A stretch of 37,682 nucleotides of DNA from the IMG/VR virus record IMGVR_UViG_2778261545_000003; one strand, given 5' to 3'. The DNA comes from a virus. Its lineage: Duplodnaviria; Heunggongvirae; Uroviricota; Caudoviricetes. The position numbers and the translations under genes are program-made. This document shows positions 2,140-28,853 of this stretch, in pieces. The stretch's first letter is position 1. Each line of letters opens with the position of its first letter. The notes below the pieces were generated by a model. That model was given only the letters and a program-made list of their open reading frames with translations, was not told where the DNA came from and made no database searches.

Positions 2140-3078
2140 TTAAATTTCCTTTGAAAAAACGCAACAACATTTTGCGATGGTTGTAATGTCTTCAAGCTTA
2201 CAAACAAAATCAGTTGTATCTGATGTGATTTTTACTTTTCCAACTGGAATTCTTGTTAATTTTCTTAAACTTACTTTACCTTCAATCTCAATCAACCAAC
2301 TACCATCTGAAACATCATCATATTCTGTATCTGCAATAAAGGTTTTTCCTTCTGCGGTAACTCCAATAGGTTTTTTCAATCCGGAAGGTATAAGCGTCTT
2401 GTCAAATGCTAAGTAGCCTTCATCATGTAATTTACCGTCAATGATTGTTTGGTGTTTAAGTTGGGCTACAGAGCTGGAATTATCGATAAATTTGGGGCCA
2501 TTGCCGTTTGTGAGCCAGAGTAATGAAGTTCCTGTTTCAAGAGCGCATTGAATGATCCAATCGCTAGGAAACGTGTCTCGTAAGTACCTGTTTGCTACAG
2601 TGCTTTTTGAAACCTGCAAATGGTTTGCTAGGGCTTGTCGGGTGCTAAAGCCGTAGGCTGCGACTAAGCGATCAATTGCCGCCTTCCCTCCTTTATTAGG
2701 ATTTATGCTGGTCTCGATTGGGAACTTTTGGGCTATTGAGTTAGTTCTATCCAGGTCATCAGATTTGGTATGGGCTAAACGTTCATCATTTAATAAAACT
2801 GAGGATGATTCACAGCTGATTCCCGATGCCAACCAGTCGATAGATGCGCCGGTCTCTATACTGCAAATTATCACCCAGTCAGCAGGAAATGTGTCACGAG
2901 CATACCTGTTAGCCATCGTGCTTTGTGAGATACCCAGATGATTGCAAAATGCTTGCCGCGAAGTAAAACCATACGCAGCAAGTATACGCTCAATTACTTT
3001 CTGTCCCCCACGGTTTTGCATTATTGAAGTTTTTAGACTCTCGCTAATATGGCGAAATGTGTTTTTTTGAGTTGACAT
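2140..3078 (-). CDS. cI: 186-type CI-like immunity repressor with tandemly duplicated N-terminal DNA-binding domain
   Basis: 312-aa ORF divergent from apl/cII. Two about 60-aa repeats (VIERILAAYGFTSRQAFCNHLGISQSTMANRYARDTFPADWVIICSIETGASIDWL and AIDRLVAAYGFSTRQALANHLQVSKSTVANRYLRDTFPSDWIIQCALETGTSLLWL), about 60 percent identical, matching the phage CI-repressor N-terminal HTH pattern. Confidence 0.7.
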   Translation of the reverse strand: MSTQKNTFRHISESLKTSIMQNRGGQKVIERILAAYGFTSRQAFCNHLGISQSTMANRYARDTFPADWVIICSIETGASIDWLASGISCESSSVLLNDERLAHTKSDDLDRTNSIAQKFPIETSINPNKGGKAAIDRLVAAYGFSTRQALANHLQVSKSTVANRYLRDTFPSDWIIQCALETGTSLLWLTNGNGPKFIDNSSSVAQLKHQTIIDGKLHDEGYLAFDKTLIPSGLKKPIGVTAEGKTFIADTEYDDVSDGSWLIEIEGKVSLRKLTRIPVGKVKITSDTTDFVCKLEDITTIAKCCCVFSKEI

Positions 3079-3087
3079 AACCGTTAT

Positions 3088-3125
3088 GAGATCCTAATCT
3101 CCGTTTTGTGAAGTTCTGGTCACAA
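3088..3125. promoter_or_regulatory. Candidate operator inverted repeats in the cI-apl switch region
   Basis: GAGAT-ccta-ATCTC (3088..3101) and TTGTGA-N8-TCACAA (3106..3125) lie in the 88-bp gap between divergent cI and apl. Confidence 0.3.
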
Positions 3126-3166
3126 TTCAAACCGGCTCACCACAAGCCAATAGGAGATGTTGCATC

Positions 3167-3388
3167 ATGACCCCTAACATTTCAATAACTCTGAATACGC
3201 CACATGTCACAATTGAGCGTTATAGCGAACTTACTGGTCTTTCAATCGATACAATTAACGATATGCTGGCTGACGGTCGCATCCCTCGGCATCGCCTTCG
3301 GAAAGACAAGAAAAGAGAAAAGGTGATGATCAACCTTGCTGCTCTTACCGTTGATGCACTTACTGATTGCAATGTTGTATTCAACTAG
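3167..3388 (+). CDS. apl: Apl/Cox-like excisionase and switch regulator (small HTH protein)
   Basis: 73-aa ORF with AGGAG RBS, first gene of the rightward operon divergent from cI; HTH-like segment [24 protein letters not shown]. Confidence 0.6.
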
Positions 3389-3420
3389 TTCCATTTTGGG
3401 ATACATCAGGGGTATCGACC

Positions 3421-3930
3421 ATGTTTGATTACCAAGTTTCCAAACATCCACATTTTGATGAAGCCTGTCGTGCATTCGCATTGCGCCACAACCTGGTGCA
3501 ACTGGCAGAACGTGCTGGCATGAATGTGCAGATTCTGCGGAACAAGCTGAACCCATCTCAACCTCATTTATTAACCGCACCAGAAATCTGGCTGCTTACC
3601 GATCTGACTGAAGATTCAACGCTGGTAGATGGTTTTCTGGCACAGATTCACTGCCTGCCATGTGTACCGATTAATGAGGTTGCAAAAGAGAAACTGCCGC
3701 ACTACGTCATGAGCGCAACTGCAGAGATCGGACGTGTTGCAGCAGGTGCGGTATCTGGTGATGTAAAAACTAGTGCCGGTCGTCGTGATGCTATCAGCAG
3801 CATTAACTCTGTAACACGACTGATGGCGCTGGCTGCTGTTTCATTGCAGGCCCGTTTACAGGCTAATCCTGCGATGGCGAGTGCAGTTGATACCGTGACT
3901 GGCCTCGGTGCTTCATTCGGTTTGCTGTGA
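3421..3930 (+). CDS. cII: CII-like lysogeny-establishment activator (186 CII family)
   Basis: About 170 aa from the ATG at 3421 (SD AGGGG); position after apl and size match 186 CII; resemblance to 186 CII is from memory. Confidence 0.6.
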
Positions 3931-3937
3931 GGTGCTT

Positions 3938-4138
3938 ATGCTGACGAAAGAACCATCATTTGCATCGCTGCTGGTAAAACAAAGCCCGGCAATGCACTAC
4001 GGTCACGGCTGGATCATGGGTGAGGATGGTAAACGCTGGCATCCGTGCCGTTCACAAGATGAATTGCTGGCAGAACTATCTACGAAAAAACGGGGGAACA
4101 AATGGCTATTGAAGGCGCTGCGGCGACTGTTCCATTAA
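3938..4138 (+). CDS. Hypothetical early protein
   Basis: ORF with GAGG RBS upstream of ATG 3938; early operon position (186 fil/dhr region); no recognisable motif. Confidence 0.4.
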   Translation: MLTKEPSFASLLVKQSPAMHYGHGWIMGEDGKRWHPCRSQDELLAELSTKKRGNKWLLKALRRLFH

Positions 4139-4443
4139 GCCCCGGTGAACGCCTGAATGGACTTAATCACATAGCGGAATTAAGGGCAAAAGTTTTTGGC
4201 CTGAATATTGAGTCAGAGCTTGAGCGGTTTATTAAAAATATGCGTGATCCACGGGATATCAATAACGAACAAAATAAACGAGCACTGGCAGCCATATTCT
4301 TTATGGCAAAAATTCCGGCTGAACGTCATAGCATCAGCATCAATGAGCTGACCACTGACGAAAAGCGGGAGTTGATTAAAGCAATGAATCATTTTCGTGC
4401 AGTGGTGAGCTTATTTCCCAGACGGCTAACCATGCCGAATTAA
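4102..4443 (+). CDS. Hypothetical early protein
   Basis: 113-aa ORF in the rightward early operon, overlapping the preceding ORF end. Confidence 0.45.
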   Translation: MAIEGAAATVPLSPGERLNGLNHIAELRAKVFGLNIESELERFIKNMRDPRDINNEQNKRALAAIFFMAKIPAERHSISINELTTDEKRELIKAMNHFRAVVSLFPRRLTMPN

Positions 4444-4510
4444 CCAACTAATGAAATTAATGGCGTAAACCCGCCGAGCATCCCTTTATCTAAATTCAGG
4501 AGAATTGATT

Positions 4511-4744
4511 ATGCGTAATATTGAGATCCTCACGACTAAAACCGGATCGGATGATGCAGGGCTTAATATTTTACTGACAGAGGCTCGTCTGGAAGAACGC
4601 CGGGCAAGGGCTGAAGCAATGGCAGCTCGCCTTGATAGCCTGGCGTGTCATATCTCATCCCGTCAGCTAAACCACGTGGAAGCGGCAGAACTGCTGCGTG
4701 TGACTGCTGAAGCAATCCAGAACGAAGCGCAGGAGATCCACTAA
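4511..4744 (+). CDS. Hypothetical early protein
   Basis: ATG at 4511 preceded by AGGAG; stop overlaps the next start (TAATG). Confidence 0.5.
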   Translation: MRNIEILTTKTGSDDAGLNILLTEARLEERRARAEAMAARLDSLACHISSRQLNHVEAAELLRVTAEAIQNEAQEIH

Positions 4745-4971
4745 TGGCTGATGCAATGGATCTCGTACAGCAGCGCGTTGAAGAAGAACGCCAGCGCCAT
4801 ATCCGTGCTGCCCGTGCCAAAACACCGGGCGTGTCTCGCGTGCTTTGCATTGAGTGTGAAGCGCCAATTCCGCCAGCACGCCGCCGTGCCATTCCGGGTG
4901 TGCAGCTTTGCATTACCTGCCAGGAAATTGCAGAGCTGAAAGGCAAACATTACAACGGAGGTGCTGTATGA
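4744..4971 (+). CDS. TraR/DksA-family C4 zinc-finger protein
   Basis: 75 aa with CxxC...CxxC (CIECEAP...CITCQE); stop overlaps the dam start (ATGA). Confidence 0.7.
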   Translation: MADAMDLVQQRVEEERQRHIRAARAKTPGVSRVLCIECEAPIPPARRRAIPGVQLCITCQEIAELKGKHYNGGAV

Positions 4972-5825
4972 GCACCATCCTGAAATGGGCGGGAAATAAA
5001 ACCGCCATTATGTCCGAACTGAAAAAACACCTTCCTGCTGGCCCGCGACTGGTTGAACCTTTCGCGGGTTCCTGTGCTGTGATGATGGAGACGGATTACC
5101 CCAGCTATCTTGTTGCGGATATTAATCCTGATTTAATCAACCTCTATAAAAAGGTTGCTGCTGATTGCGAGGCGTTTATATCTCGTGCCAGAGCTTTATT
5201 TGAGGAAGCAAACAGGGAGTTGGCTTATTACAACATAAGGCAGGAGTTTAATTACTCCACTGAAATTACTGATTTCATGAAAGCGGTATATTTCCTGTAT
5301 CTCAATCGTCATGGTTACCGTGGGTTATGTCGTTATAACAAGAGCGGGCATTTCAACATTCCATACGGTAATTATAAAAATCCGTATTTCCCTGAAAAAG
5401 AAATTCGCGCATTTGCAGAGAAAGCCCAGCAAGCAACGTTTATCTGCGCCAGCTTTGATGAAACGCTGGCGATGCTGCAGGTGGGGGATGTGGTGTATTG
5501 CGATCCGCCTTATGACGGTACGTTTTCCGGCTATCACACTAACGGCTTCACTGAAGATGACCAGTATCACCTGGCATCTGTTCTTGAATATCGATCATCA
5601 GAAGGTCATCCAGTCATTGTTTCTAACAGTGACACATCCCTGATCCGTTCGCTGTATCGAAATTTCACTCACCACTACATCAAGGCAAAACGCAGCATCG
5701 GCGTGTCGGCTGGCGAGAGTAAATCTGCAACAGAAATCATCGCTGTTTCTGGGGCGCGCTGCTGGGTGGGATTTGATCCTTCGCGTGGCGTGGATAGTTC
5801 TGCCGTGTACGGAGTGCGTGCATGA
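4968..5825 (+). CDS. dam: DNA adenine methyltransferase (Dam-like, N6-adenine)
   Basis: N-terminal SAM-binding region (ILKWAGNK...PFAGSCAV) and DPPY catalytic motif (VYCDPPYDG); GGAGG RBS before ATG 4968. Confidence 0.85.
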
Positions 5826-8236
5826 GCCATGCTGATATGAACAACTGCAGCGGCTTTAACGAGGCCGCCGCAGCATTCTCATGGAACAGCCCGAAAAAGG
5901 CTATTAACCCTTATCTGGACCTGGCGGAAGTTGCGCCGGTTTCTGCGCTTTCAAACCTGATCACTCTGTACGCTGCCGATAACGAGCAGGAACAACTGCG
6001 CCGCGAGGCACTGAGTGATCAGGTTTGGGAGCGTTATTTCTTTAATGAATCCCGTGATCCTGTCCAGCGCGAAATGGAGCAGGATAAGTTCATTAGCCGG
6101 GCAAAGTTGGCGCATGAGCAGCAGCGTTTTAACCCGGACATGGTCATTCTGGCAGACGTTAACGCCCAGCCTTCCCATATCAGCAGGCCGCTGATGCAAC
6201 GTATTGAATACTTCAGCAGCCTTGGCAGGCCAAAGGCTTATTCCCGCTATTTACGTGAGACGATTAAGCCATGTCTGGAACGGCTGGAGCATGTACGCGA
6301 CAGTCAGCTATCCACTTCTTTTCGCTTTATGGCAAGCCATGAAGGGCTGGACGGCCTGCTGATTCTGCCTGAAATGAGTCAGGATCAGGTGAAACGCCTG
6401 TCCACCCTTGTTGCTGCGCATATGAGCATGTGCCTTGATGCAGCTTGTGGCGATTTGTATGCCACCGATGACGTTAAGCCAGAAGAAATCCGCAAGACAT
6501 GGGAAAAGGTGGCAGCAGAAACCCTGCGACTGGATGTCATACCGCCTGCGTTTGAGCAACTCCGCCGGAAAAGAAACCGCCGTAAACCCGTGCCCTATGA
6601 ACTCATTCCGGGTTCGCTGGCGCGTATGTTGTGCGCCGATTGGTGGTACCGGAAATTATGGAAGATGCGTTGCGAATGGCGGGAAGAGCAGTTGCGTGCT
6701 GTTTGCCTGGTCAGCAAAAAAGCATCTCCCTATGTCAGCTATGAAGCCATGATGCATAAACGTGAGCAGCGCCGTAAGTCGCTGGAGTTTTTCCGTTCTC
6801 ATGAACTGGTGAACGAAGACGGCGACACGCTGGACATGGAGGATGTGGTAAACGCCAGCAGCAGCAACCCTGCGCATCGCCGCAATGAGATGATGGCCTG
6901 TGTTAAAGGTCTGGAGCTTATCGCGGAAATGCGCGGTGACTGCGCCGTTTTCTACACCATCACCTGTCCGTCACGTTTCCATTCCACGCTAAATAACGGC
7001 AGGCCCAACCCGACCTGGACAAATACGACGGTAAGACAAAGCAGTGATTATCTGGTCGGCATGTTTGCTGCATTTCGTAAGGCGATGCACAAAGCCGGAT
7101 TGCGCTGGTATGGCGTGCGGGTGGCTGAGCCGCATCATGACGGTACAGTTCACTGGCACCTGTTGTGTTTTATGCGCAAAAAAGATCGCCGCACCATTAC
7201 TGCTTTGTTGCGTAAGTTTGCCATTCGTGAAGACCGCGAGGAGCTGGGTAATAACACGGGACCACGCTTTAAGTCTGAGCTGATAAACCCGCGCAAAGGT
7301 ACGCCAACAAGCTACATCGCGAAATACATCAGTAAGAACATTGACGGGCGTGGTCTGGCTGGCGAGATCAGCAAGGAAACGGGTAAATCCCTGCGTGATA
7401 ACGCTGAATACGTTAATGCCTGGGCGTCTCTGCATCGTGTTCAGCAATTCCGCTTCTTTGGCATTCCGGGGCGTCAGGCTTACCGTGAACTGCGATTGCT
7501 GGCTGGTCAGGCGGCAAGGCAACAGGGGGACAAAAAAGCAGGTGCGCCGGTACTGGATAACCCGCGCCTTGATGCAATCCTGGCTGCTGCTGATGCTGGT
7601 TGTTTTGCCACCTACATCATGAAGCAGGGCGGCGTACTGGTTCCCCGCAAATATCACCTCATCAGAACTGCTTATGAAATCAACGAAGAACCGACCGCAT
7701 ATGGCGATCACGGTATTCGTATTTATGGCATCTGGTCACCCATTGCAGAGGGCAAGATCTGCACTCATGCGGTGAAGTGGAAAATGGTTCGTAAGGCCGT
7801 TGACGTTCAGGAGGCGGCAGCCGACCAGGGCGCTTGCGCCCCTTGGACTCGTGGCAATAACTGTCCCCTTGCTGAAAATTTGAACCAACAGGAGAAAGAT
7901 AAATCAGCTGATGGGGACACCAGAACGGACATTACCCGCATGGATGACAAGGAGTTGCACGATTACCTGCACAGTATGAGCAAAAAAGAGCGCCGGGAAC
8001 TGGCAGCAAGGTTACGCCTGGTTAAACCGAAACGGCGTAAAGACTACAAACAGCGAATTACAGACCATCAGCGACTGCAGCTCGTCTATGAGCTGAAGTC
8101 CAGAGGATTTGATGGTAGCGAGAAAGAGGTCGATGTACTCCTTCGCGGCGGCAGTATTCCGTCAGGAGCAGGCCTGCGTATCTTCTATCGGAACCAGCGT
8201 TTGCGGGAAGATGATAAGTGGCGGAACCTGTATTAA
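5822..8236 (+). CDS. A: Replication initiation protein A (rolling-circle HUH endonuclease)
   Basis: 804 aa with HUH motif ([10 protein letters not shown]) and paired-tyrosine motif (YIAKYISK) typical of P2 A / phiX174 A initiators; start overlaps dam stop. Confidence 0.9.
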
Positions 8237-8389: not shown

Positions 8390-8578
8390 ATGCAGGACTA
8401 TTTTTTGGAGTCTTTGAAGCTCCAGCGCATTGATTTTTTTCTTAAGCTTGTAGCGGCTAGTGAGTGTAGTGATGAAGAGAAGGGGCTGGCTCTGCAGTGG
8501 GTTTCTGAATTGACTGATGAACTCATGGCAAAGATCAGAATCCACGAATACAGCCGCTCAATGGATGTCATCAGTTGA
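8390..8578 (+). CDS. Small protein in SOS operon (possible Tum-like antirepressor component)
   Basis: 62-aa ORF from the ATG at 8390 with GGAGG RBS, immediately downstream of the LexA box. Confidence 0.4.
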   Translation: MQDYFLESLKLQRIDFFLKLVAASECSDEEKGLALQWVSELTDELMAKIRIHEYSRSMDVIS

Positions 8579-8588
8579 GGTGACTTTT

Positions 8589-8822
8589 ATGCGCATTGAA
8601 ATAATGATCGATAAAGAGCAGAAAATTAGCCAGTCTACCCTGGACGCCCTTGAATCCGAGCTTTACCGCAATCTGCGCCCCCTGTATCCCAAAGCGGTAA
8701 TTCGTATCCGTAAAGGTAGCTCTAATGGTGTGGAACTGACCGGACTGCAACTGGACGAAGAAAGAAAACAAGTGATGAAAATTATGCAGAAGGTGTGGGA
8801 AGACGACAGCTGGCTGCATTAA
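8589..8822 (+). CDS. DinI-family protein
   Basis: 77 aa, MRIEIMIDKEQ...LDALESELYRNLRPLYP...VWEDDSWL resembles E. coli DinI; SD GAGGTGA before ATG 8589. Confidence 0.75.
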   Translation: MRIEIMIDKEQKISQSTLDALESELYRNLRPLYPKAVIRIRKGSSNGVELTGLQLDEERKQVMKIMQKVWEDDSWLH

Positions 8823-9088: not shown

Positions 9089-9619
9089 TTAACCTTGTAT
9101 AGTTATTTGAATATTTTCTTCATTAACACCAAAGTATAGGGCTAGCCCTGCTTTTGCCTCCTGAAGTGTTAACGGCTTAACTACATTTTCTTCTTCTTCT
9201 TCGTACTCATCACCCGCTTGATCGACAATCGAATTAGTCGGGGTTAATTTGGGAAGAGCTTTAAATTCCAACTTGTCAGCCTCAATGCCAATGTCTTTGA
9301 GGTTGCGATAAGAAACGGGATTCCGATTGCCATCCCATTGTCCTGGGATGTCAATTTCAGCATAAGAATTGATGTTTATGATCCAGCGTTTAGGGTTTTC
9401 TGGAGCCCTGCTTACTCCCGAGATTCGACCGATCATAAAAGCATGATGATGTTTTGCTTCTTGTGATCCCCAGTCCTTTCTCGAATTTTGTACACAAACT
9501 AAATATTCGTGCTTAGCTGCATGGCTGGCGTCAAGTCTCCATGCTTGGCTTCCCCCTGTGTTCAAAATCTCTGTTAAACCACGAGCAGTAAGTACAGTAA
9601 TACAGTTGGTAGTAGCCAT
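9089..9619 (-). CDS. Hypothetical cargo protein (176 aa) in the variable region between the SOS operon and cos
   Basis: Clean ORF on the opposite strand with acidic stretch EYEEEEEN; AT-rich; no recognisable motif. Confidence 0.55.
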   Translation of the reverse strand: MATTNCITVLTARGLTEILNTGGSQAWRLDASHAAKHEYLVCVQNSRKDWGSQEAKHHHAFMIGRISGVSRAPENPKRWIININSYAEIDIPGQWDGNRNPVSYRNLKDIGIEADKLEFKALPKLTPTNSIVDQAGDEYEEEEENVVKPLTLQEAKAGLALYFGVNEENIQITIQG

Positions 9620-20660: not shown

Positions 20661-21476
20661 TCATATTTTTAATTTTTTATGGATATGCTCCATCCCTAAA
20701 TTAGATATCTCTTTTTTTAGCTGGGTTTCACTTGCAGTTATCCAGTTTTTTCCACAGTTTGGTAGAAGCATCTCGCTACTTGACGGATTGATAAGTTTTA
20801 CTTTTTCATTCTTTATAATTTTGTTTTTCAAATAACTTTTACTTATTAAGGCTGATTTTTCAGTTATAACGAGATAAAAAAATATGCTTCCAAAAAATAT
20901 ACCTTTTAAAATAATACCGCTGCGTAACAGAACAGGGTCATTTTTGGTTATTCTCATTTTAAAGGGAGAGCAAAGGTTGTCTTCACTTGTAGGTATATTA
21001 AGTTCACTTTTTTGCTCGTCAGTAAGTTTAAGAGGCATGAGCAGTCCAGCGAAGAGCATGACATCTTTTTCTGAAGGCAAAGGTTCTCCGCGGAGAATAT
21101 AATCTTTATATGCGCCAAAAATATGTGTCGATGGATCATTGACCGCGCTTGCCGAGTTGTAAGAAATTTTCATTAACCAGCGTAGCAATAAATGATAATC
21201 ATAAGTTATAGTCGTTTGTGTCTTTAGATAAAGTTGGGTTAAGAAACCGTTTCTGGCTAAAAACTGACTTCCATAATCATCTAAAAAACTTAATGCTCCA
21301 CCATTGCATGTTTTACAAACATCGGCAATTGTTGCCTCACCACCAATTATATCATTTGCTCTCTCGTTCCAGCCTATAAAACGATCTCCAGATTCTTTTT
21401 GATATTTATATATAAATTTAGGGATAATATGTTCTCTTTCTATTATTCCATCTTGCTCGCAATATCTGCAGTGCAT
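20661..21476 (-). CDS. Cargo protein with N-terminal HNH-like (His-Me finger) nuclease motif
   Basis: 271 aa; CRYCEQ...EHIIPKF...GG...CKTCNGG arrangement typical of HNH endonucleases; strongly AT-rich, opposite strand, inserted between S and the V late promoter. Confidence 0.55.
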   Translation of the reverse strand: MHCRYCEQDGIIEREHIIPKFIYKYQKESGDRFIGWNERANDIIGGEATIADVCKTCNGGALSFLDDYGSQFLARNGFLTQLYLKTQTTITYDYHLLLRWLMKISYNSASAVNDPSTHIFGAYKDYILRGEPLPSEKDVMLFAGLLMPLKLTDEQKSELNIPTSEDNLCSPFKMRITKNDPVLLRSGIILKGIFFGSIFFYLVITEKSALISKSYLKNKIIKNEKVKLINPSSSEMLLPNCGKNWITASETQLKKEISNLGMEHIHKKLKI

Positions 21477-23413: not shown

Positions 23414-24011
23414 TCTGCTGCCACCGGGTTCAACACCACTGGAGCGCCGACTGGCGCAAACCTGCAGCGGGATTTCTGATCTGCAGGTGCCGCTTCGTGA
23501 CTTGTGGAATCCGGCAACCTGTCCGGTCAGTTTCCTGCCTTATCTCGCCTGGGCGTTCTCTGTGGATCGCTGGGACGAGGGCTGGACAGAAAGCGTCAAG
23601 CGCCAGGTGGTGAAGGATGCTTTTTATATTCATCAGCATAAAGGGACCACCAGTGCCGTGCGGCGGGTGGTGGAGCCGTTCGGCTTTCTGATCCGCATTA
23701 TTGAGTGGTGGCAGACCGGAGAGGCACCGGGCACGTTTCGCCTGGATATCGGCGTGCAGGACCAGGGCATCACTGAAGATACCTATCTGGAACTTGAGCG
23801 ACTGATAAGCGATGCCAAACCATGTAGCCGTCACATGATCGGCATGTCCATCAATCTGCAGACCAGCGGCCCGCATTGGGTGGGAGCCGCCAGCTATCTT
23901 GGCGAAGAAATCACGATCTATCCGTATATCAACGAAACGATTATTTCCGGTGGCACCGCGCATGAAGGCGGGGCGGTCCATGTTATTGACACAATGAGAG
24001 TGAATCCATGA
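23406..24011 (+). CDS. I: Baseplate/tail-fibre attachment protein I
   Basis: 201-aa ORF, P2 gpI position. Confidence 0.8.
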   Translation: MNSLLPPGSTPLERRLAQTCSGISDLQVPLRDLWNPATCPVSFLPYLAWAFSVDRWDEGWTESVKRQVVKDAFYIHQHKGTTSAVRRVVEPFGFLIRIIEWWQTGEAPGTFRLDIGVQDQGITEDTYLELERLISDAKPCSRHMIGMSINLQTSGPHWVGAASYLGEEITIYPYINETIISGGTAHEGGAVHVIDTMRVNP

Positions 24012-25405
24012 GCACAAAATTTTATACCCTGCTGACGGATATTGGCGCGGCGAAACTTGCCAGCGCCGCCGCGCTCGGTGTGCCGCTAAAAATTACCCAT
24101 ATGGCGGTGGGCGATGGCGGCGGAGTATTGCCAACGCCGGACGCAAAGCAGACGGCACTGGTAAATGAGAAACGCCGGGCTGCGCTGAATATGCTTTATA
24201 TCGACCCGCAGAATAGCAGCCAGATTATTGCTGAACAGGTGATCCCTGAAAACGAGGGCGGTTGGTGGATACGTGAAGTGGGCCTGTTTGATGAGTCCGG
24301 GGCATTGATTGCCGTGGGCAACTGCCCGGAAAGCTATAAGCCGCAACTGGCTGAAGGCAGCGGGCGCACCCAGACCGTGCGCATGGTGCTCATTACCAGC
24401 AGTACGGACAATATCACCCTGAAAATCGACCCTGCTGTAGTGCTGGCAACCCGTAAATACGTGGATGATGAAGTCCTGGAATTAAAGCTGTATGTGGATG
24501 ACCAGATGAGAAACCACATTGCCGCACAAGATCCTCATACCCAGTATGCGCAGAAACATAATCCGACATTTACCGGAGAACCAAAAGCGCCGACGCCTGC
24601 AGCAGGAAATAACACCACGCGGATTGCGACCACTGAGTTTGTTCAGGCCGCTATTACTGCTCTGATTAACGATGCGCCAGCCACGCTGGACACACTGAAA
24701 GAAATTGCCGCAGCCATTAACAATGACCCGAAATTCAGTACCACCATTAACAATGCGCTGGCACTAAAAGCACCGCTGTCGAGTCCGGCACTCACCGGAA
24801 CGCCAACAGCACCTACTGCGGCACAGTCGGTCAACAATACACAGATTGCCACTACAGCTTTTGTGAAATCAGCGATTGCAGCAATGGTGGGTTCTGCACC
24901 TGCGGCACTGGATACACTGAACGAACTGGCGGCGGCACTGGGGAATGATCCGAACTTTGCCACGACAATGCTTAATGCGCTGGCAGGTAAACAACCGCTG
25001 GACAATACGCTTACCAATTTGAGTGGAAAGGATGTAGCTGGTCTTCTCGCATACCTTGGTTTGGGAGAATTATCTCTGGCTGGCACTGCATCGGGTGTCA
25101 TTGGTCTGAATGGGTATGTAACGATTCCGTTAATTATTTCAGGTTCCCGGAGAACACTGATTATTCAGTGGGGGCAGGCGAGATTTGGTGGGTCTGGTGG
25201 TGAAGATGCCGGATATCTTAATGATTTTCCTTTTGCCTTTCCGTCAGCATGTTATGGAATGATAGTTAGTCATGTGGGGCATACACCTTCAGGCGCAGGA
25301 ATCCTGTCGGCTTCTGCAATTACATCAAATCAGTTCCGCGGTTTTTCAAGCATAGCGACTGCTGCAAACGCTGTATTAGGTCGTTATATCGCTATAGGGG
25401 TGTAA
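24008..25405 (+). CDS. H: Tail fibre protein H (constant N-terminus plus currently expressed variable C-terminus)
   Basis: 465 aa; N-terminal region resembles P2 gpH (MAVGDGGG, ESYKP.LAEGSGR, NELAAALGNDPNFATTM.NALAGKQP); C-terminal third lies inside the invertible segment. Confidence 0.85.
   Translation: MSTKFYTLLTDIGAAKLASAAALGVPLKITHMAVGDGGGVLPTPDAKQTALVNEKRRAALNMLYIDPQNSSQIIAEQVIPENEGGWWIREVGLFDESGALIAVGNCPESYKPQLAEGSGRTQTVRMVLITSSTDNITLKIDPAVVLATRKYVDDEVLELKLYVDDQMRNHIAAQDPHTQYAQKHNPTFTGEPKAPTPAAGNNTTRIATTEFVQAAITALINDAPATLDTLKEIAAAINNDPKFSTTINNALALKAPLSSPALTGTPTAPTAAQSVNNTQIATTAFVKSAIAAMVGSAPAALDTLNELAAALGNDPNFATTMLNALAGKQPLDNTLTNLSGKDVAGLLAYLGLGELSLAGTASGVIGLNGYVTIPLIISGSRRTLIIQWGQARFGGSGGEDAGYLNDFPFAFPSACYGMIVSHVGHTPSGAGILSASAITSNQFRGFSSIATAANAVLGRYIAIGV
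25044..25069. repeat. Left crossover site of invertible tail-fibre segment (gix/hix-like)
   Basis: TTCTCGCATACCTTGGTTTGGGAGAA; inverted copy at 26886..26911 (19 of 26 identical, TTGGTTT core conserved); both fall on a shared GLGE peptide junction. Confidence 0.6.
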
Positions 25406-25406
25406 T

Positions 25407-25844
25407 ATGTTTTATAGTCCATCTTTAAACATTTTTGTGAATCCTGCACTTAAGGATGATTACATTAATGCAAATTCATGGCCAGATGATGCTCTGGCTG
25501 TCAGTGATGATGTTTATAATGAATTTGCAGTCAATACGCCTCCAGATGACAAAATTCGTGTTGCAGGAAAAAATGGATTACCCACATGGGCACTAATACC
25601 TCCACCATCGCATGAAGAACTTATTCAACAGGCAGAATCAGAAAGGCAATTATTGCTTAATCAGGCCAACGAATACATGAACAGTAAGCAATGGCCTGGC
25701 AAAGCAGCTATTGGTCGTCTGAAAGGTGAGGAACTGGCGCAATATAATTTGTGGCTGGATTATCTGGACGCACTGGAACTGGTCGATACTTCCGGTGCGC
25801 CAGATATTGAATGGCCTACGCCTCCGGCAGTTCAGGCCAGATGA
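25407..25844 (+). CDS. G: Tail fibre assembly chaperone G (cognate to current H C-terminus)
   Basis: 145-aa ORF following H; tail-fibre-assembly-like C-terminus (DIEWPTPP). Confidence 0.75.
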   Translation: MFYSPSLNIFVNPALKDDYINANSWPDDALAVSDDVYNEFAVNTPPDDKIRVAGKNGLPTWALIPPPSHEELIQQAESERQLLLNQANEYMNSKQWPGKAAIGRLKGEELAQYNLWLDYLDALELVDTSGAPDIEWPTPPAVQAR

Positions 25845-26418
25845 CGTCCGGCGCTGTGCTGGTATCTGTTGCCGTCACCACGTCAATGTAATCCAGCACA
25901 GTGTTAAGGCGGGTTGTTTCTGCCTGCGTCAGCTTCCGTCCGGCCTGTAATTTCAGTTGAATCAGACTGATGGAGGCCATTGCAGTATCAATCAGCGACT
26001 GGCGCTGTGCTTCTGCTGCATCTACTGCTGCGCCGTGCTGTGCCTCAGTATCGGTCACCCATTTCTCACCATCCCATTTATCGTATGGCGTTAACGGGGC
26101 GATAGTGGTTGTATTTTCAGGGTAATCACCCGGAGTTGTGATTTCTTTGGCTTCTCCCGTTTCGGTGTTATAGACGATTTCACCGCGATGGTCTGGCACA
26201 TATTCCCATGAGTTAAAATCTGCAGAACGGCAGATAGCATAACCAGCCTTATATGTGCCTGGTGAATCTAAACAGGAATATGCCGGGATACCAACACCAA
26301 CGGCAAGATATTCATTTGAAGTGGAAATATATTCCCGTGTTTCACCATCATAGTTATAGACGGTAATATTCCCTGCCTTCGTGGCAATAATCTCGCTATT
26401 TAATACAGCGTTATCCAT
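25816..26418 (-). CDS. Alternative tail fibre assembly chaperone (G-prime, inverted orientation)
   Basis: 200-aa ORF on the opposite strand, tail-to-tail with G, shared C-terminal motif (DVIWPELPEA). Confidence 0.7.
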   Translation of the reverse strand: MDNAVLNSEIIATKAGNITVYNYDGETREYISTSNEYLAVGVGIPAYSCLDSPGTYKAGYAICRSADFNSWEYVPDHRGEIVYNTETGEAKEITTPGDYPENTTTIAPLTPYDKWDGEKWVTDTEAQHGAAVDAAEAQRQSLIDTAMASISLIQLKLQAGRKLTQAETTRLNTVLDYIDVVTATDTSTAPDVIWPELPEA

Positions 26419-26898
26419 TATGCAGCCCTCACAATATAATTAAAGGCAATGTTACGTGGGCGGTTCTCATTTGCGGTTGGGACAACGGCTGAAGCATTAA
26501 AATTCGCATACAGGGAGCGTTGATACCCGGATGCTGATGCACCACTTAATGCGGGAGCTTTTGACTCCGAAGCCGAAAAGGCCCCTGACACGTATCCTAA
26601 TAACCCTTGTGAATCGCCAATTGAACTGTAGCCAACCACCCCGGTAATGTTTCGGATAGCATCTCCTTGTGCTGAAAGCAGAGTTCGCCCACTATCCACT
26701 CCCTTTTCACCATCCCAGCCACGAATAAACTCACCGCGTAAATCAGGCAATTTTAACGTCGGGTAAGCCTTTGCCAGATTAGGGTAATCTTCAGCAGAAA
26801 AAGCCGCACCGTTGCATTTCAGCCAGCCTGTTGGCGGTGTGGCTGAAGGCCATGGAACAGGCACACCAACAGGCAGCGCAGAGCCTTCCCCTAAACCA
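26418..26898 (-). other. Silent alternative tail-fibre C-terminal cassette (H-prime variable region)
   Basis: Minus-strand reading frame with tail-fibre-tip-like sequence (LPDLRGEFIRGWDG); upstream junction GLGE coincides with the right crossover site; no promoter of its own. Confidence 0.65.
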
Positions 26899-26911
26899 AC
26901 GTTTAAGAAAA
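26886..26911. repeat. Right crossover site of invertible tail-fibre segment
   Basis: TTCCCCTAAACCAACGTTTAAGAAAA, similar to the Gin/Hin site consensus (AAACC-NN-GGTTT core). Confidence 0.6.
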
Positions 26912-26960
26912 TGCAGAGGTAACAGCTAACTGGCATCATCTCCGGTTTTTATTCAGGGGA

Positions 26961-27538
26961 ATGATCATGCTTATTGGCTATGTACGCGTGTCAACAAATG
27001 ACCAGAACACCGATTTGCAACGTAATGCACTGAACTGCGCGGGATGTGAGCGGATTTTTGAGGACAAAATCAGTGGTACTAAGTCCGACAGACCGGGGCT
27101 TAAAAAACTGCTCAGGACACTATCGGCAGGTGACACACTGGTTGTCTGGAAGCTGGACAGGTTGGGGCGCAGTATGCGGCATCTTGTTACTCTGATAGAA
27201 GAGTTGCGCCAGCGCGGCGTGAATTTCAGAAGTCTGACTGACAGTATTGATACCAGTACCCCAATGGGCCGTTTCTTTTTTCATGTCATGGGTGCCCTGG
27301 CTGAAATGGAACGCGAACTGATAGTTGAACGTACCAGGGCAGGGCAGGGCTGGCTGCAGCTCGTGCTAAAGGCAGAGTAGGTGGACGCCGTCCTAAGTTG
27401 ACTACCGAACAGTGGGCACAGATTGGACGTTTACTCGAGGCCGGAGAATCAAGACAGCGTATTGCACTGATTTTTGATGTGGGCGTTTCTACCATTTATA
27501 GAAAATTTCCGGCGAATGAGAACAATGAATCGCCCTGA
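26961..27538 (+). pseudogene. Gin/Hin/Pin-family serine DNA invertase, frameshifted
   Basis: N-terminal 130 aa match the serine-recombinase catalytic domain (MLIGYVRVSTNDQ...LVVWKLDRLGRS); three tandem AGGGC copies at 27336..27350 where two would give ...ERTRAGLAAARAKGRVGGRRPKLT...; as read the frame stops at 27380 and the HTH domain is in another frame to 27538. Confidence 0.75.
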
Positions 27539-27586
27539 GTCAGCATTATTTTGATTTTTCCTGTAAGCGGACAAATACCGTTATTT

Positions 27587-27604
27587 TGTGTGAATAACGA
27601 CACA
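27587..27604 (+). promoter_or_regulatory. P2-type late promoter activator site (TGT-N12-ACA) upstream of FI
   Basis: TGTgtgaataacgacACA, about 77 bp upstream of the FI start. Confidence 0.55.
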
Positions 27605-27680
27605 ACTGCGCTTAGCTGTTTGTCAGGCACAATCACTTCAACATAGGGCGAAGCCTAATCCAATCAGGAGGTTCGCCACT

Positions 27681-28853
27681 ATGGCTCAGGATTACCACCA
27701 CGGAGTGCGCGTTGTTGAAGTCAACGAAGGCACCCGATCCATTACCACGGTGAGCACCGCCATCGTGGGTATGGTCTGCACGGGCGATGATGCCGATGCA
27801 AAAATGTTTCCTCTTAATAAACCCGTGCTGATCACTGATGTGCTGACTGCCAGCGGTAAAGCGGGTGAGTCCGGCACGCTGGCCCGTTCGCTGGATGCCA
27901 TCGCTGACCAGGCAAAACCCGTGACCGTTGTTGTGCGTGTGCCGCAGGGGGAAACGGAAGAAGAAACCACGACCAATATCATCGGCGCAGTGACCGCTGA
28001 AGGTAAAAAAACAGGCATGAAAGCCCTGTTATCTGCCCAGTCACAGCTCGGCGTTAAACCGCGCATTCTCGGCGTGCCAGGTCACGACACGAAGACGGTA
28101 GCTACTGAGTTGCTGAGCGTGGCGCAAAGCCTGCGTGGATTTGCTTACCTGTCAGCGTATGGTTGCAAGACGGTGCAGGAAGCAATCACTTACCGTGAAA
28201 ACTTCAGTCAGCGTGAAGGAATGCTGATCTGGCCCGACTTTACTGGCTGGGACACGGTGCTGAATGCCGAAGCAACGGCTTATGCCACCGCCCGTGCGCT
28301 TGGTCTGCGCGCCAAAATTGACGAGCAGACCGGATGGCACAAAAGCCTGTCCAACGTGGGCGTTAACGGTGTCACCGGAATTTCTGCTGATGTGTTCTGG
28401 GATCTGCAGGACCCGGCAACCGATGCGGGACTGCTGAACCAGAACGACGTCACCACCCTTATCCGCAAAGACGGTTTTCGCTTCTGGGGTTCCCGCTGCC
28501 TGAGTGATGACCCGCTCTTTGCCTTCGAAAACTACACCCGCACGGCGCAGGTGCTGACGGACACGATGGCAGAAGCGCACATGTGGGCGGTGGATAAACC
28601 GCTGAATCCGTCGCTGGCCCGCGACATTATCGAGGGTATCCGCGCCAAAATGCGCAGCCTGGTCAGTCAGGGCTATCTCATTGGTGGTGATTGCTGGCTG
28701 GATGAGTCGGTGAACGACAAAGACACGCTGAAAGCCGGAAAACTCACCATCGACTACGACTACACGCCAGTGCCGCCACTTGAAAACCTGATGCTGCGTC
28801 AGCGCATCACCGATCAGTACCTGGTGAATTTCTCCAGCCAGGTCAGCGCGTAA
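27681..28853 (+). CDS. FI: Tail sheath protein
   Basis: 390-aa ORF, P2 gpFI-like. Confidence 0.85.

Follow-up and report, generated by a model that had tools for sequence, protein, structure and literature searches.

A question raised by the tail-fibre locus of this prophage is whether the two fibre tips that it encodes on opposite strands are the alternative states of a single invertible switch, and whether that switch can still operate in the strain that carries it. We analysed the locus within a 37,682-nucleotide stretch of DNA (hereafter, the window), using sequence and domain comparisons, inversion in silico and searches of public E. coli genomes.

Tail-fibre cassettes and crossover sites

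The first-pass annotation had assigned the DNA to a P2-family prophage, and the gene content agrees. Pfam domains along the locus follow the P2 late-gene order (V W J I H upstream, FI FII E T U D ogr downstream), the gpA replication gene and the Q/P/O/N/M packaging and capsid genes are present, as in P2-like phages (Peduoviridae), and the best phage matches are themselves P2-like (for example, Cartapus, pro483 and 500465-1). The lysogeny module is of the 186 type. P2 shares the baseplate and tail gene order and has, as the annotation stated, one H tip and one chaperone gene, G, followed by a terminator and an oppositely oriented fun(Z); unlike the window, it has neither an invertase nor crossover sites. 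In the window, an invertase gene occupies the slot between G and FI where the P2 record has fun(Z), again as proposed. This Z/fun slot is a known swap hotspot. The fibre locus comprises the following features:

24008–25069, + strand: constant part of tail-fibre gene H (Sc), residues 1–354, ending in ...AYLGLGE inside the left crossover site
25044–25069, + strand: left 26-bp crossover site, TTCTCGCATACCTTGGTTTGGGAGAA, with its central TT at 25056–25057
25070–25405, + strand: currently expressed receptor-binding tip (Sv); Pfam Gp53-like_C, E = 3.1e-11
25407–25844, + strand: tail-fibre assembly chaperone paired with Sv (U), 145 amino acids; Pfam Caudo_TAP, E = 4.4e-33
25816–26418, − strand: tail-fibre assembly chaperone paired with the silent tip (U'), 200 amino acids; Pfam Caudo_TAP, E = 4.4e-32
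26421–26885, − strand: silent, promoterless alternative tip (Sv'); Pfam Collar, E = 1.5e-15
26886–26911, − strand: right 26-bp crossover site, which reads TTTTCTTAAACGTTGGTTTAGGGGAA on the − strand, with a central TT

The constant part matches the N-terminal Pfam domain Phage_tail_fib (E = 6.5e-65), and residues 1–358 of H are 51% identical to residues 1–368 of P2 H, the similarity ending at the crossover site. Domain assignments bear out the description of two alternative fibre C-termini arranged head-to-head, each with its own chaperone (Gp53-like_C and Caudo_TAP on the + strand, Collar and Caudo_TAP on the − strand); the 3' ends of U and U' overlap by 29 bp. The comparison with known receptor-binding domains that the annotation had suggested places Sv' with a short tail fibre (PDB 9CUY, E = 3.9e-29) and the T4 gp37 tip (2XGF, E = 4.7e-15), and links Sv weakly to the fibre of R1 pyocin (6CXB, E = 1e-3). 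Comparison of Sv and Sv' with Mu S/S' and with the P2 H tip gave no similarity.

Both tips join the constant part at the peptide GLGE, and the in-frame tip swap foreseen from this junction was reproduced in silico: the full H open reading frame of the present orientation (24008–25405, 465 amino acids) becomes, on inversion, an uninterrupted fibre frame of 508 amino acids in which ...AYLGLGE is followed directly by GSALPV... The locus has the composition of cassettes of the Mu G, P1 C and e14 P type, with a constant N-terminus outside, two opposed tips inside, each followed by its chaperone, and in-frame fusion of the silent tip on inversion. A mechanically called open reading frame at 26418–26939 extends past the right site to a spurious ATG; like its relatives with the annotation ‘phage tail protein’, this frame is a promoterless C-terminal cassette and not an independent gene.

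The flanking of about 1.85 kb by inverted 26-bp sites holds up on alignment. Left and right sites, in inverted orientation, are identical at 19 of 26 positions (direct reading and alignment) and have the central dinucleotide TT in common; the segment measures 1,868 bp with both sites included in full and 1,842 bp from centre to centre. We located the pair by direct reading and a consensus pattern search. A default-seed repeat search over the window did not report it, because its longest exact core is shorter than the 9-nt seed. A 19-base consensus with up to 2 mismatches matches the left and right sites alone in 37.7 kb (shuffled sequences, 0/100), and no third crossover site was found in the window by the same search. 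A shufflon, which has at least three sites and more than two arrangements, is ruled out by the presence of only two sites in the window with 2 mismatches allowed. Chance inverted repeats are ruled out by the shuffles together with an exact inversion between sister isolates, described below.

Inversion of homologous segments and related switches

Homologous segments demonstrably invert at exactly these sites. Over 12,962 bp, the sister E. coli isolates 2020N21-246 and 2020N21-246-1 differ by one exact inversion and nothing else, and its breakpoint can be placed anywhere in TTGGTTTGGGAGAAG, an interval that starts at the central TT of the same site. The pair is a clean in-silico demonstration of such segments flipping during ordinary strain handling. 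The left site of the window is identical in sequence to the inversion breakpoint site in these sister isolates (L002 and L003), and a second isolate pair (L001 and L004) has the same inversion boundaries. Among complete E. coli genomes, at a coverage of at least 80%, 53 records have the window orientation and 70 are inverted. For EPEC, phase variation of P2-like prophages has also been measured (Goldberg et al. 2014, PMC4272514): paired-end read mapping of single-colony cultures found the homologous locus 93% forward. The inverted junction was also sought at the contig ends of sibling drafts, where the tail of one (L011) runs into unrelated sequence and two others (L012 and L013) just end. In the sister isolates, inversion occurred with an IS1203 element 1 bp from the left site, an indication that sequence immediately internal to this 26-bp site is dispensable.

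The first-pass annotation had likened the segment to the G segment of Mu. The likeness stands for a fibre switch of the Gin/Pin type and fails for Mu as the nearest relative, the tips having no detectable similarity to Mu S/S'. Mu G/Gin, as well as P1 C/Cin, shares the logic of the window, its 26-bp sites and the gene order Sc, Sv-U, U'-Sv', invertase; the Mu segment is 3 kb, its gix site (TTCCTGTAAACCGAGGTTTTGGATAA) differs from the sites of the window, which nonetheless resemble it as they do the e14 sites, and its phage backbone is different. Mu U, like the Mu tips, has no detectable similarity to its counterpart in the window, and Mu U' weakly matches the U of the window (30% over 73 amino acids).

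Judged by sequence, the closest classical relative is e14 P/PinE and not Mu G/Gin, because the identity of the repaired invertase (see below) is 85% with PinE compared with 76% with Gin, U' and TfaE have 89.5% identity, and the crossover sites barely differ between the window and e14, whose site is near-identical to the left site. The e14 P segment of E. coli K-12 (stfP/tfaP, tfaE/stfE, pinE) has the same layout of constant part, site, tip and chaperone, inverted chaperone and tip, site and invertase, and its junction also falls at GLGE. Identity is lower for Sv' (56% to StfE) and U (50% to TfaP), and only 36% for Sv (to StfP). The e14 element is a defective lambdoid element, whereas the module of the window sits on a P2-type H in a complete P2/186-like prophage; the frameshifted invertase is a feature of the window, unlike the PinE system of e14.

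The homologous locus of EPEC E2348/69 (2977580–2979467; PMC4272514), for which both orientations were measured, lies in the same position, upstream of the sheath gene, and its products are close to those of the window (U' 87.5%, U 71% and invertase 80% identical). At 2 of 26 positions its right site departs from that of the window; sibling prophages have exactly the EPEC site. This copy is a remnant without the constant H N-terminus, and its invertase is annotated as an uninterrupted 192-amino-acid coding sequence. Three sites make the other EPEC P2 locus a shufflon; the window has two only. More widely, a 3.7-kb query had at least one match in 3,144 of 5,426 complete E. coli genomes, in up to 11 places per genome. 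The novelty implied by the first-pass annotation finds no support: this arrangement is common among genomes, RefSeq annotates it and it has been published.

A disrupted invertase gene

The gene expected to drive inversion lies just beyond the right site, with these features:

26967–27538, + strand: disrupted gene for a serine DNA invertase of the Pin/Gin family, located between the segment and the sheath gene
26989–27051, strand not applicable: putative recombinational enhancer of the Fis-dependent kind within the 5' end of the same gene, placed by positional homology only
27335–27349, + strand: three copies of CAGGG, a 5-bp tandem duplication that causes the frameshift; two copies in all intact relatives examined

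The 5-bp duplication, which the first-pass annotation had missed, is private to this copy and truncates the invertase upstream of its HTH DNA-binding domain. The frame from the ATG at 26967 ends at a stop at 27380 (137 amino acids), leaving the HTH-coding part out of frame to 27538, and as it stands the open reading frame matches Pfam Resolvase only (E = 1.1e-49), without an HTH. Removal of one CAGGG unit (5 bp) gives a protein of 188–190 amino acids with both Resolvase and HTH_7 (E = 1.5e-15). This repaired protein matches Gin (PDB 3UJ3, E = 1.8e-92) and has the catalytic-serine motif YVRVST; in the alignment to Gin (3UJ3 and 4M6F), MLIGYVRVSTNDQ is conserved, and the nucleophilic serine is S9 in Gin. 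The N-terminal serine-recombinase catalytic domain of the Din family is present, and the C-terminal HTH is missing from the same polypeptide. The gene is a member of the Gin/Hin/Cin/Pin family by descent and a pseudogene in this copy. The truncated invertase should not bind the crossover sites and would be expected to have lost its activity; given the loss of the HTH by frameshift, the segment can probably not be inverted by the enzyme encoded beside it.

The 12 best-ranked full-length matches to the 100 bp around the duplication in complete E. coli genomes all have 95.0% identity, the value that a 5-bp gap would produce. No three-copy CAGGG allele was found among the best-ranked matches from about 680 complete genomes with this stretch of the gene, which argues for a one-off mutation. 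Gene callers start the invertase at the second ATG, and in a lookup the 137-amino-acid form was found and the 139-amino-acid form was not; WP_000905026.1 is an intact homologous invertase.

Within the putative enhancer, two candidate Fis sites (TGTCAACAAATGACC and GCGCGGGATGTGAGC) match the Fis consensus weakly; their centres are separated by 48 bp. The enhancer would lie 97.5 bp from the centre of the right site (96.5 bp for its Mu equivalent). Between the candidate sites, GATTTG...GTAATG corresponds to the ATTTA/TAATG grooves described in the hin enhancer (PMC3798978). Synonymous-site conservation over the putative enhancer in comparison with gin and pinE had no significant excess (p = 0.63 and 0.48), and a promoter and terminator scan of 24900–27750 stayed at background level, with no convincing invertase promoter or terminator.

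State of the switch

The region is very probably a tail-fibre inversion switch of the Pin/Gin type with a broken invertase. The switch is a two-state one that acts on the tail-fibre tip of a P2/186-family prophage and lies in the Z/fun slot. In the proposed mechanism, the late V-W-J-I-H transcript would run through the region for the constant H N-terminus, cross the left site and enter the cassette then facing it, and that cassette would supply the receptor-binding C-terminus and the matching assembly chaperone. An intact invertase, encoded just outside the right site, would bind both sites, and, by analogy with Hin and Gin, Fis bound to the enhancer in the 5' end of the invertase gene would take part. 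Cleavage at the central TT/AA, rotation of the DNA and religation would invert 1,842 bp, exchanging the 465-amino-acid fibre (gp53-like tip, with U) for the 508-amino-acid fibre (Collar-type, StfE-like tip, with the TfaE-like U'). We infer that such a swap would have consequences for host range. In this strain, the segment can probably no longer flip and leaves the gp53-like tip on, barring the action of a different invertase in trans.

Two alternatives would remove either the switch or the defect. That the inverted repeats are incidental, and that the head-to-head cassettes reflect mosaic exchange in the Z/fun hotspot with no site-specific inversion, has some appeal in that the silent cassette differs in sibling prophages integrated at the same attachment site: homology breaks at 25839 and resumes at 26885, the right site forming the boundary at which it resumes. 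For the family, however, this reading is refuted by the exact sister-isolate inversion at the site, and it is almost certainly wrong here as well, given that both orientations of the same cassette pair exist, that phase variation was measured at the homologous locus (PMC4272514) and that sites of canonical 26-bp Gin/Pin/Hin form adjoin a Pin-family gene. It is also very unlikely that an error of sequencing or assembly created the 5-bp insertion and that the real genome encodes an intact invertase. That no other genome was found to have the duplication, with the 12 best-ranked matches at 95.0%, would fit an error, but the same duplication occurs in the NCBI assembly (GCA_002229775.1) and in the independently made Logan assembly of SRR3989742, although possibly from the same reads, and a clean 5-bp tandem duplication is atypical of short-read error.

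Accepting a broken invertase leaves the question of whether the segment flips by other means. The Gin, Cin, Pin, Hin and Fin invertases cross-complement, as is well established (Kutsukake 2006, cited in PMC4272514), so a second host invertase could keep the segment flipping. A related enzyme (PinE of e14, or an invertase of some other P2-like or Mu-like prophage) acting in trans, with both fibres made, is possible but doubtful. It would be helped by intact sites near-identical to those of e14, by the closeness of PinE to the repaired enzyme and by established cross-complementation within the family; co-resident related elements are plausible in view of how many genomes match and in how many places each, and the Logan assembly of the source strain breaks inside the tfaE-like U/U' region, which hints at a second similar element in that genome. 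Both junctions are nevertheless contiguous and in a single orientation in GCA_002229775.1 and in the Logan contigs (SRR3989742), two assemblies that probably derive from the reads of the same isolate, which weakly suggests one dominant orientation. Extremely improbable are two further roles for the disrupted gene: that the CAGGG tract is a slipped-strand switch, changes in copy number reversibly turning the fibre-flipping enzyme off and on, or that the truncated protein poisons related invertases, a catalytic domain without its DNA-binding domain forming mixed dimers with them in the same cell. If such poisoning were true, other invertible segments in that cell would be frozen too.

An invertible P2-type tail-fibre switch of an E. 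coli prophage is already described and ordinary, and the locus carries little weight beyond annotation. For the prophage itself, a locked segment is the reading that we favour, and the state of the switch tells which tip to expect on its virions, namely the gp53-like one; the StfE-like Collar tip would be the reserve form, probably inaccessible without a helper invertase.

Two fibre-tip cassettes at the P2 Z/fun slot

The segment joins a constant fibre part, the H N-terminus, to one of two head-to-head cassettes of tip and chaperone, as the first-pass annotation had described. The expressed pair, Sv and U, lies on the plus strand (Gp53-like_C and Caudo_TAP domains), and the silent, inverted pair, Sv' and U', lies on the minus strand (Collar and Caudo_TAP).

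Features of the invertible segment and its surroundings
24008-25405, +, H, 465 aa: Pfam Phage_tail_fib (P2-type N-terminal fibre domain, E 6.5e-65) and Gp53-like_C tip
25044-25069, +, left crossover site: TTCTCGCATACCTTGGTTTGGGAGAA
25407-25844, +, U, 145-aa chaperone downstream of H: Caudo_TAP
25816-26418, -, U', 200-aa chaperone: Caudo_TAP
26421-26885, -, Sv' tip: Collar domain
26911-26886, -, right crossover site: TTTTCTTAAACGTTGGTTTAGGGGAA
26989-27003 and 27037-27051, 5' end of the invertase gene: candidate Fis sites, centres 48 bp apart

Residues 1-358 of H share 51% identity with P2 H, and the likeness ends at the crossover site. On alignment the two sites pair as inverted repeats, with 19 of 26 positions identical, a common core TTGGTTT and the central dinucleotide TT in both. 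A generic repeat search (9-nt exact seed) did not report the pair because the conserved core is shorter than the seed. A 19-base site consensus, allowing up to 2 mismatches, found these two places and no others in the 37.7-kb window, and nothing in any of 100 dinucleotide-preserving shuffles of it. We therefore dropped a shufflon reading in favour of a two-state switch, as the same search of the window found no third site. Both tips meet the sites at the peptide GLGE, and in-silico inversion between the site centres yields an unbroken 508-aa fibre (...AYLGLGE continuing into GSALPVGVPVPW...), which bears out the proposed in-frame swap. The mechanical Sv' ORF extends across the right site to a spurious ATG at 26939.

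The stop ends of the convergent U and U' genes overlap by 29 bp (25816-25844), which leaves no space for a terminator between them; a promoter and terminator scan around this region gave nothing above background. The flanking genes are those of a complete P2/186-type prophage. P2 itself has the order H, G, terminator, fun(Z) on the minus strand, pF promoter, FI, so the invertase fills the Z/fun slot, as first annotated, and the silent cassette sits there too. A 2024 hotspot preprint describes a DNA invertase with inverted adjacent genes as frequent in this hotspot.

Elsewhere in the prophage, a two-gene candidate anti-phage system (10177-11091 and 11088-11828, +; PADLOC PDC-M03A, E 2e-122, and PDC-M03B, E 7e-93; weak HipA_C-like and clear HIRAN Pfam matches) sits in the classical old/tin hotspot of P2, with gpA on one side and the portal gene on the other. 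Between tail gene S and baseplate gene V, the opposite strand carries a 271-aa ORF (20661-21476, -) with an HNH-like CxxC...H...CxxC pattern at its N terminus. Its only matches are weak (Pfam HNH_5, 5.5e-4; phrog_26326, unknown function), and PADLOC and NCBIfam gave none. Every sibling prophage listed has a 271-aa gene at that position, so this could be a moron or defence gene not yet characterised. A 176-aa ORF (9089-9619, -) matches phrog_37247 (unknown function) over its full length, with no Pfam, PADLOC or NCBIfam match. The prophage has a lysogeny module of 186 type (CI repressor, CII/CP76), not P2 C/Cox, along with a methyltransferase of the Dam class and a DinI-like gene (2140-3930, 4908-5825 and 8517-8822 for the three jointly).

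Known relatives and inversion in homologues

The closest classical relative of the switch is the e14 P segment. U' is 89.5% identical to TfaE, the Sv' tip 56% to StfE, U 50% to TfaP and the Sv tip 36% to StfP, and the e14 sites (CTCTCGAAAACCTTGGTTTGGGAGAA and TTTTCATAAACGTTGGTTTGGGAGAA) are nearly identical to those of the window. The initial label 'Mu-G-like' holds for the shared logic, but Mu tips are unrelated and Mu sites different, and the invertase, once repaired (see below), is nearer to e14 PinE (85% identity) than to Mu Gin (76%). A recombinational enhancer is putatively placed at the homologous position, the 5' end of the invertase gene: the candidate Fis sites lie 97.5 bp from the crossover-site centre (96.5 bp in Mu), and the intervening GATTTG...GTAATG fits the AT-rich grooves reported in hin (PMC3798978). 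Matches to the Fis site are weak, and synonymous positions across the putative enhancer showed no extra constraint when tested.

In EPEC E2348/69, Goldberg et al. 2014 (PMC4272514) mapped paired-end reads from single-colony cultures to detect and measure phase variation by inversion in two P2-like prophages; they state PCR confirmation for the e14 locus and the four-variant shufflon. One locus in their Table S1 (2977580-2979467; repeat TTGTTTGGGAGAAG; 93% forward orientation) is homologous to the window module, with a right site differing at 2 of 26 positions and identities of 87.5% (U'), 71% (U) and 80% (invertase). The locus is upstream of the sheath gene and has the opposite orientation to the window. 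It has no constant H N-terminus, and a truncated integrase gene abuts its left end (2977243-2978079); the segment thus flips with no complete fibre gene to serve. Records of P2-like phages, among them Cartapus, pro483 and 500465-1, already carry annotations for a DNA invertase and two tail-fibre assembly genes.

We also searched complete E. coli genomes with an in-silico inverted version of the segment; at a coverage of at least 80%, the window arrangement occurred in 53 records and the inverted one in 70. The sister isolates 2020N21-246 (blood) and 2020N21-246-1 (the pair L002/L003) are identical over 12,962 bp save one exact inversion, whose breakpoint could fall at any point of TTGGTTTGGGAGAAG, a stretch starting from the central TT of a left site that matches the window's exactly. 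An IS1203 lies inside the segment, 1 bp from that site, and moved with it (L002 5071-6400, L003 6800-8150). It disrupts the gp53-like tip, and in one orientation H is fused to IS1203 as a pseudogene. Since the segment inverted nonetheless, the sequence just inside the left site seems dispensable for inversion. A second, independent pair (L001/L004), with the cassette pair of the window and an intact invertase, shows the same inversion boundaries (4057-5903, 99.8% identity on the opposite strand).

Sibling prophages (L007-L009) at the same chromosomal site (adjoining ybjL/ybjM) encode an identical 465-aa H and match the window at ~99% DNA identity as far as U. Their invertase is intact (188 aa), and their silent cassette is another one (131-aa chaperone and 135-aa gp53-like tip). 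Homology stops at the U/U' junction (25839) and restarts on the inner edge of the right site (26885), with ~99% identity on both sides. Judged from these alignments, silent cassettes are swapped as modules bounded by the crossover site.

A private frameshift in the invertase

The invertase ORF adjoining the right site stops at 27380, 137 aa from ATG 26967, with the Resolvase catalytic domain alone; the helix-turn-helix tail (...RAGLAAARAKGRVGGRRPKLTTEQWAQIGRLL...) is encoded in a second frame. The DNA has a duplicated tract, ACC AGGGC AGGGC AGGGC TGG, with one repeat unit fewer in all nine intact relatives examined (L001-L004, L007-L009). Removing 5 bp restores a 188-190 aa protein with Resolvase and HTH_7 (E 1.5e-15) that matches Mu Gin (PDB 3UJ3) over residues 1-183 (E 1.8e-92), its catalytic-serine motif intact. 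The gene stretch is present in 684 records of complete E. coli genomes, in which the 12 top-ranked full-length matches to the 100 bp around the duplication are all 95.0% identical, the value expected from a 5-bp gap. The exact 137-aa product is recorded from two contigs only: NLNU01000004.1 (NCBI GCA_002229775.1), which contains the window sequence, and the Logan assembly of SRR3989742. As both source-strain contigs carry the duplication and the relatives lack it, sequence comparison identifies the frameshift as a real, private mutation of the source strain, not a family feature.

Serine invertases such as Hin and Gin cannot recognise their sites without the DNA-binding domain, so the truncated enzyme is presumably dead. 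A co-resident invertase that complements it, leaving the segment unlocked, is unlikely, though it has some backing in the break between two Logan contigs of the source strain. One ends at window ~25832 and the other begins at ~26185, both inside the tfaE-like U/U' stretch rather than at a crossover site, which suggests a second tfaE-like element elsewhere in the genome, possibly with a second invertase. Against this, both source-strain assemblies cross both junctions in a single orientation, and this agrees weakly with a locked state.

The first-pass description was correct: the feature is real, and it belongs to a familiar class of element, of which homologues have been detected experimentally and published. 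Only the frameshifted invertase is specific to the window's copy; most likely it holds the fibre in the gp53-like state, barring complementation by a co-resident invertase.
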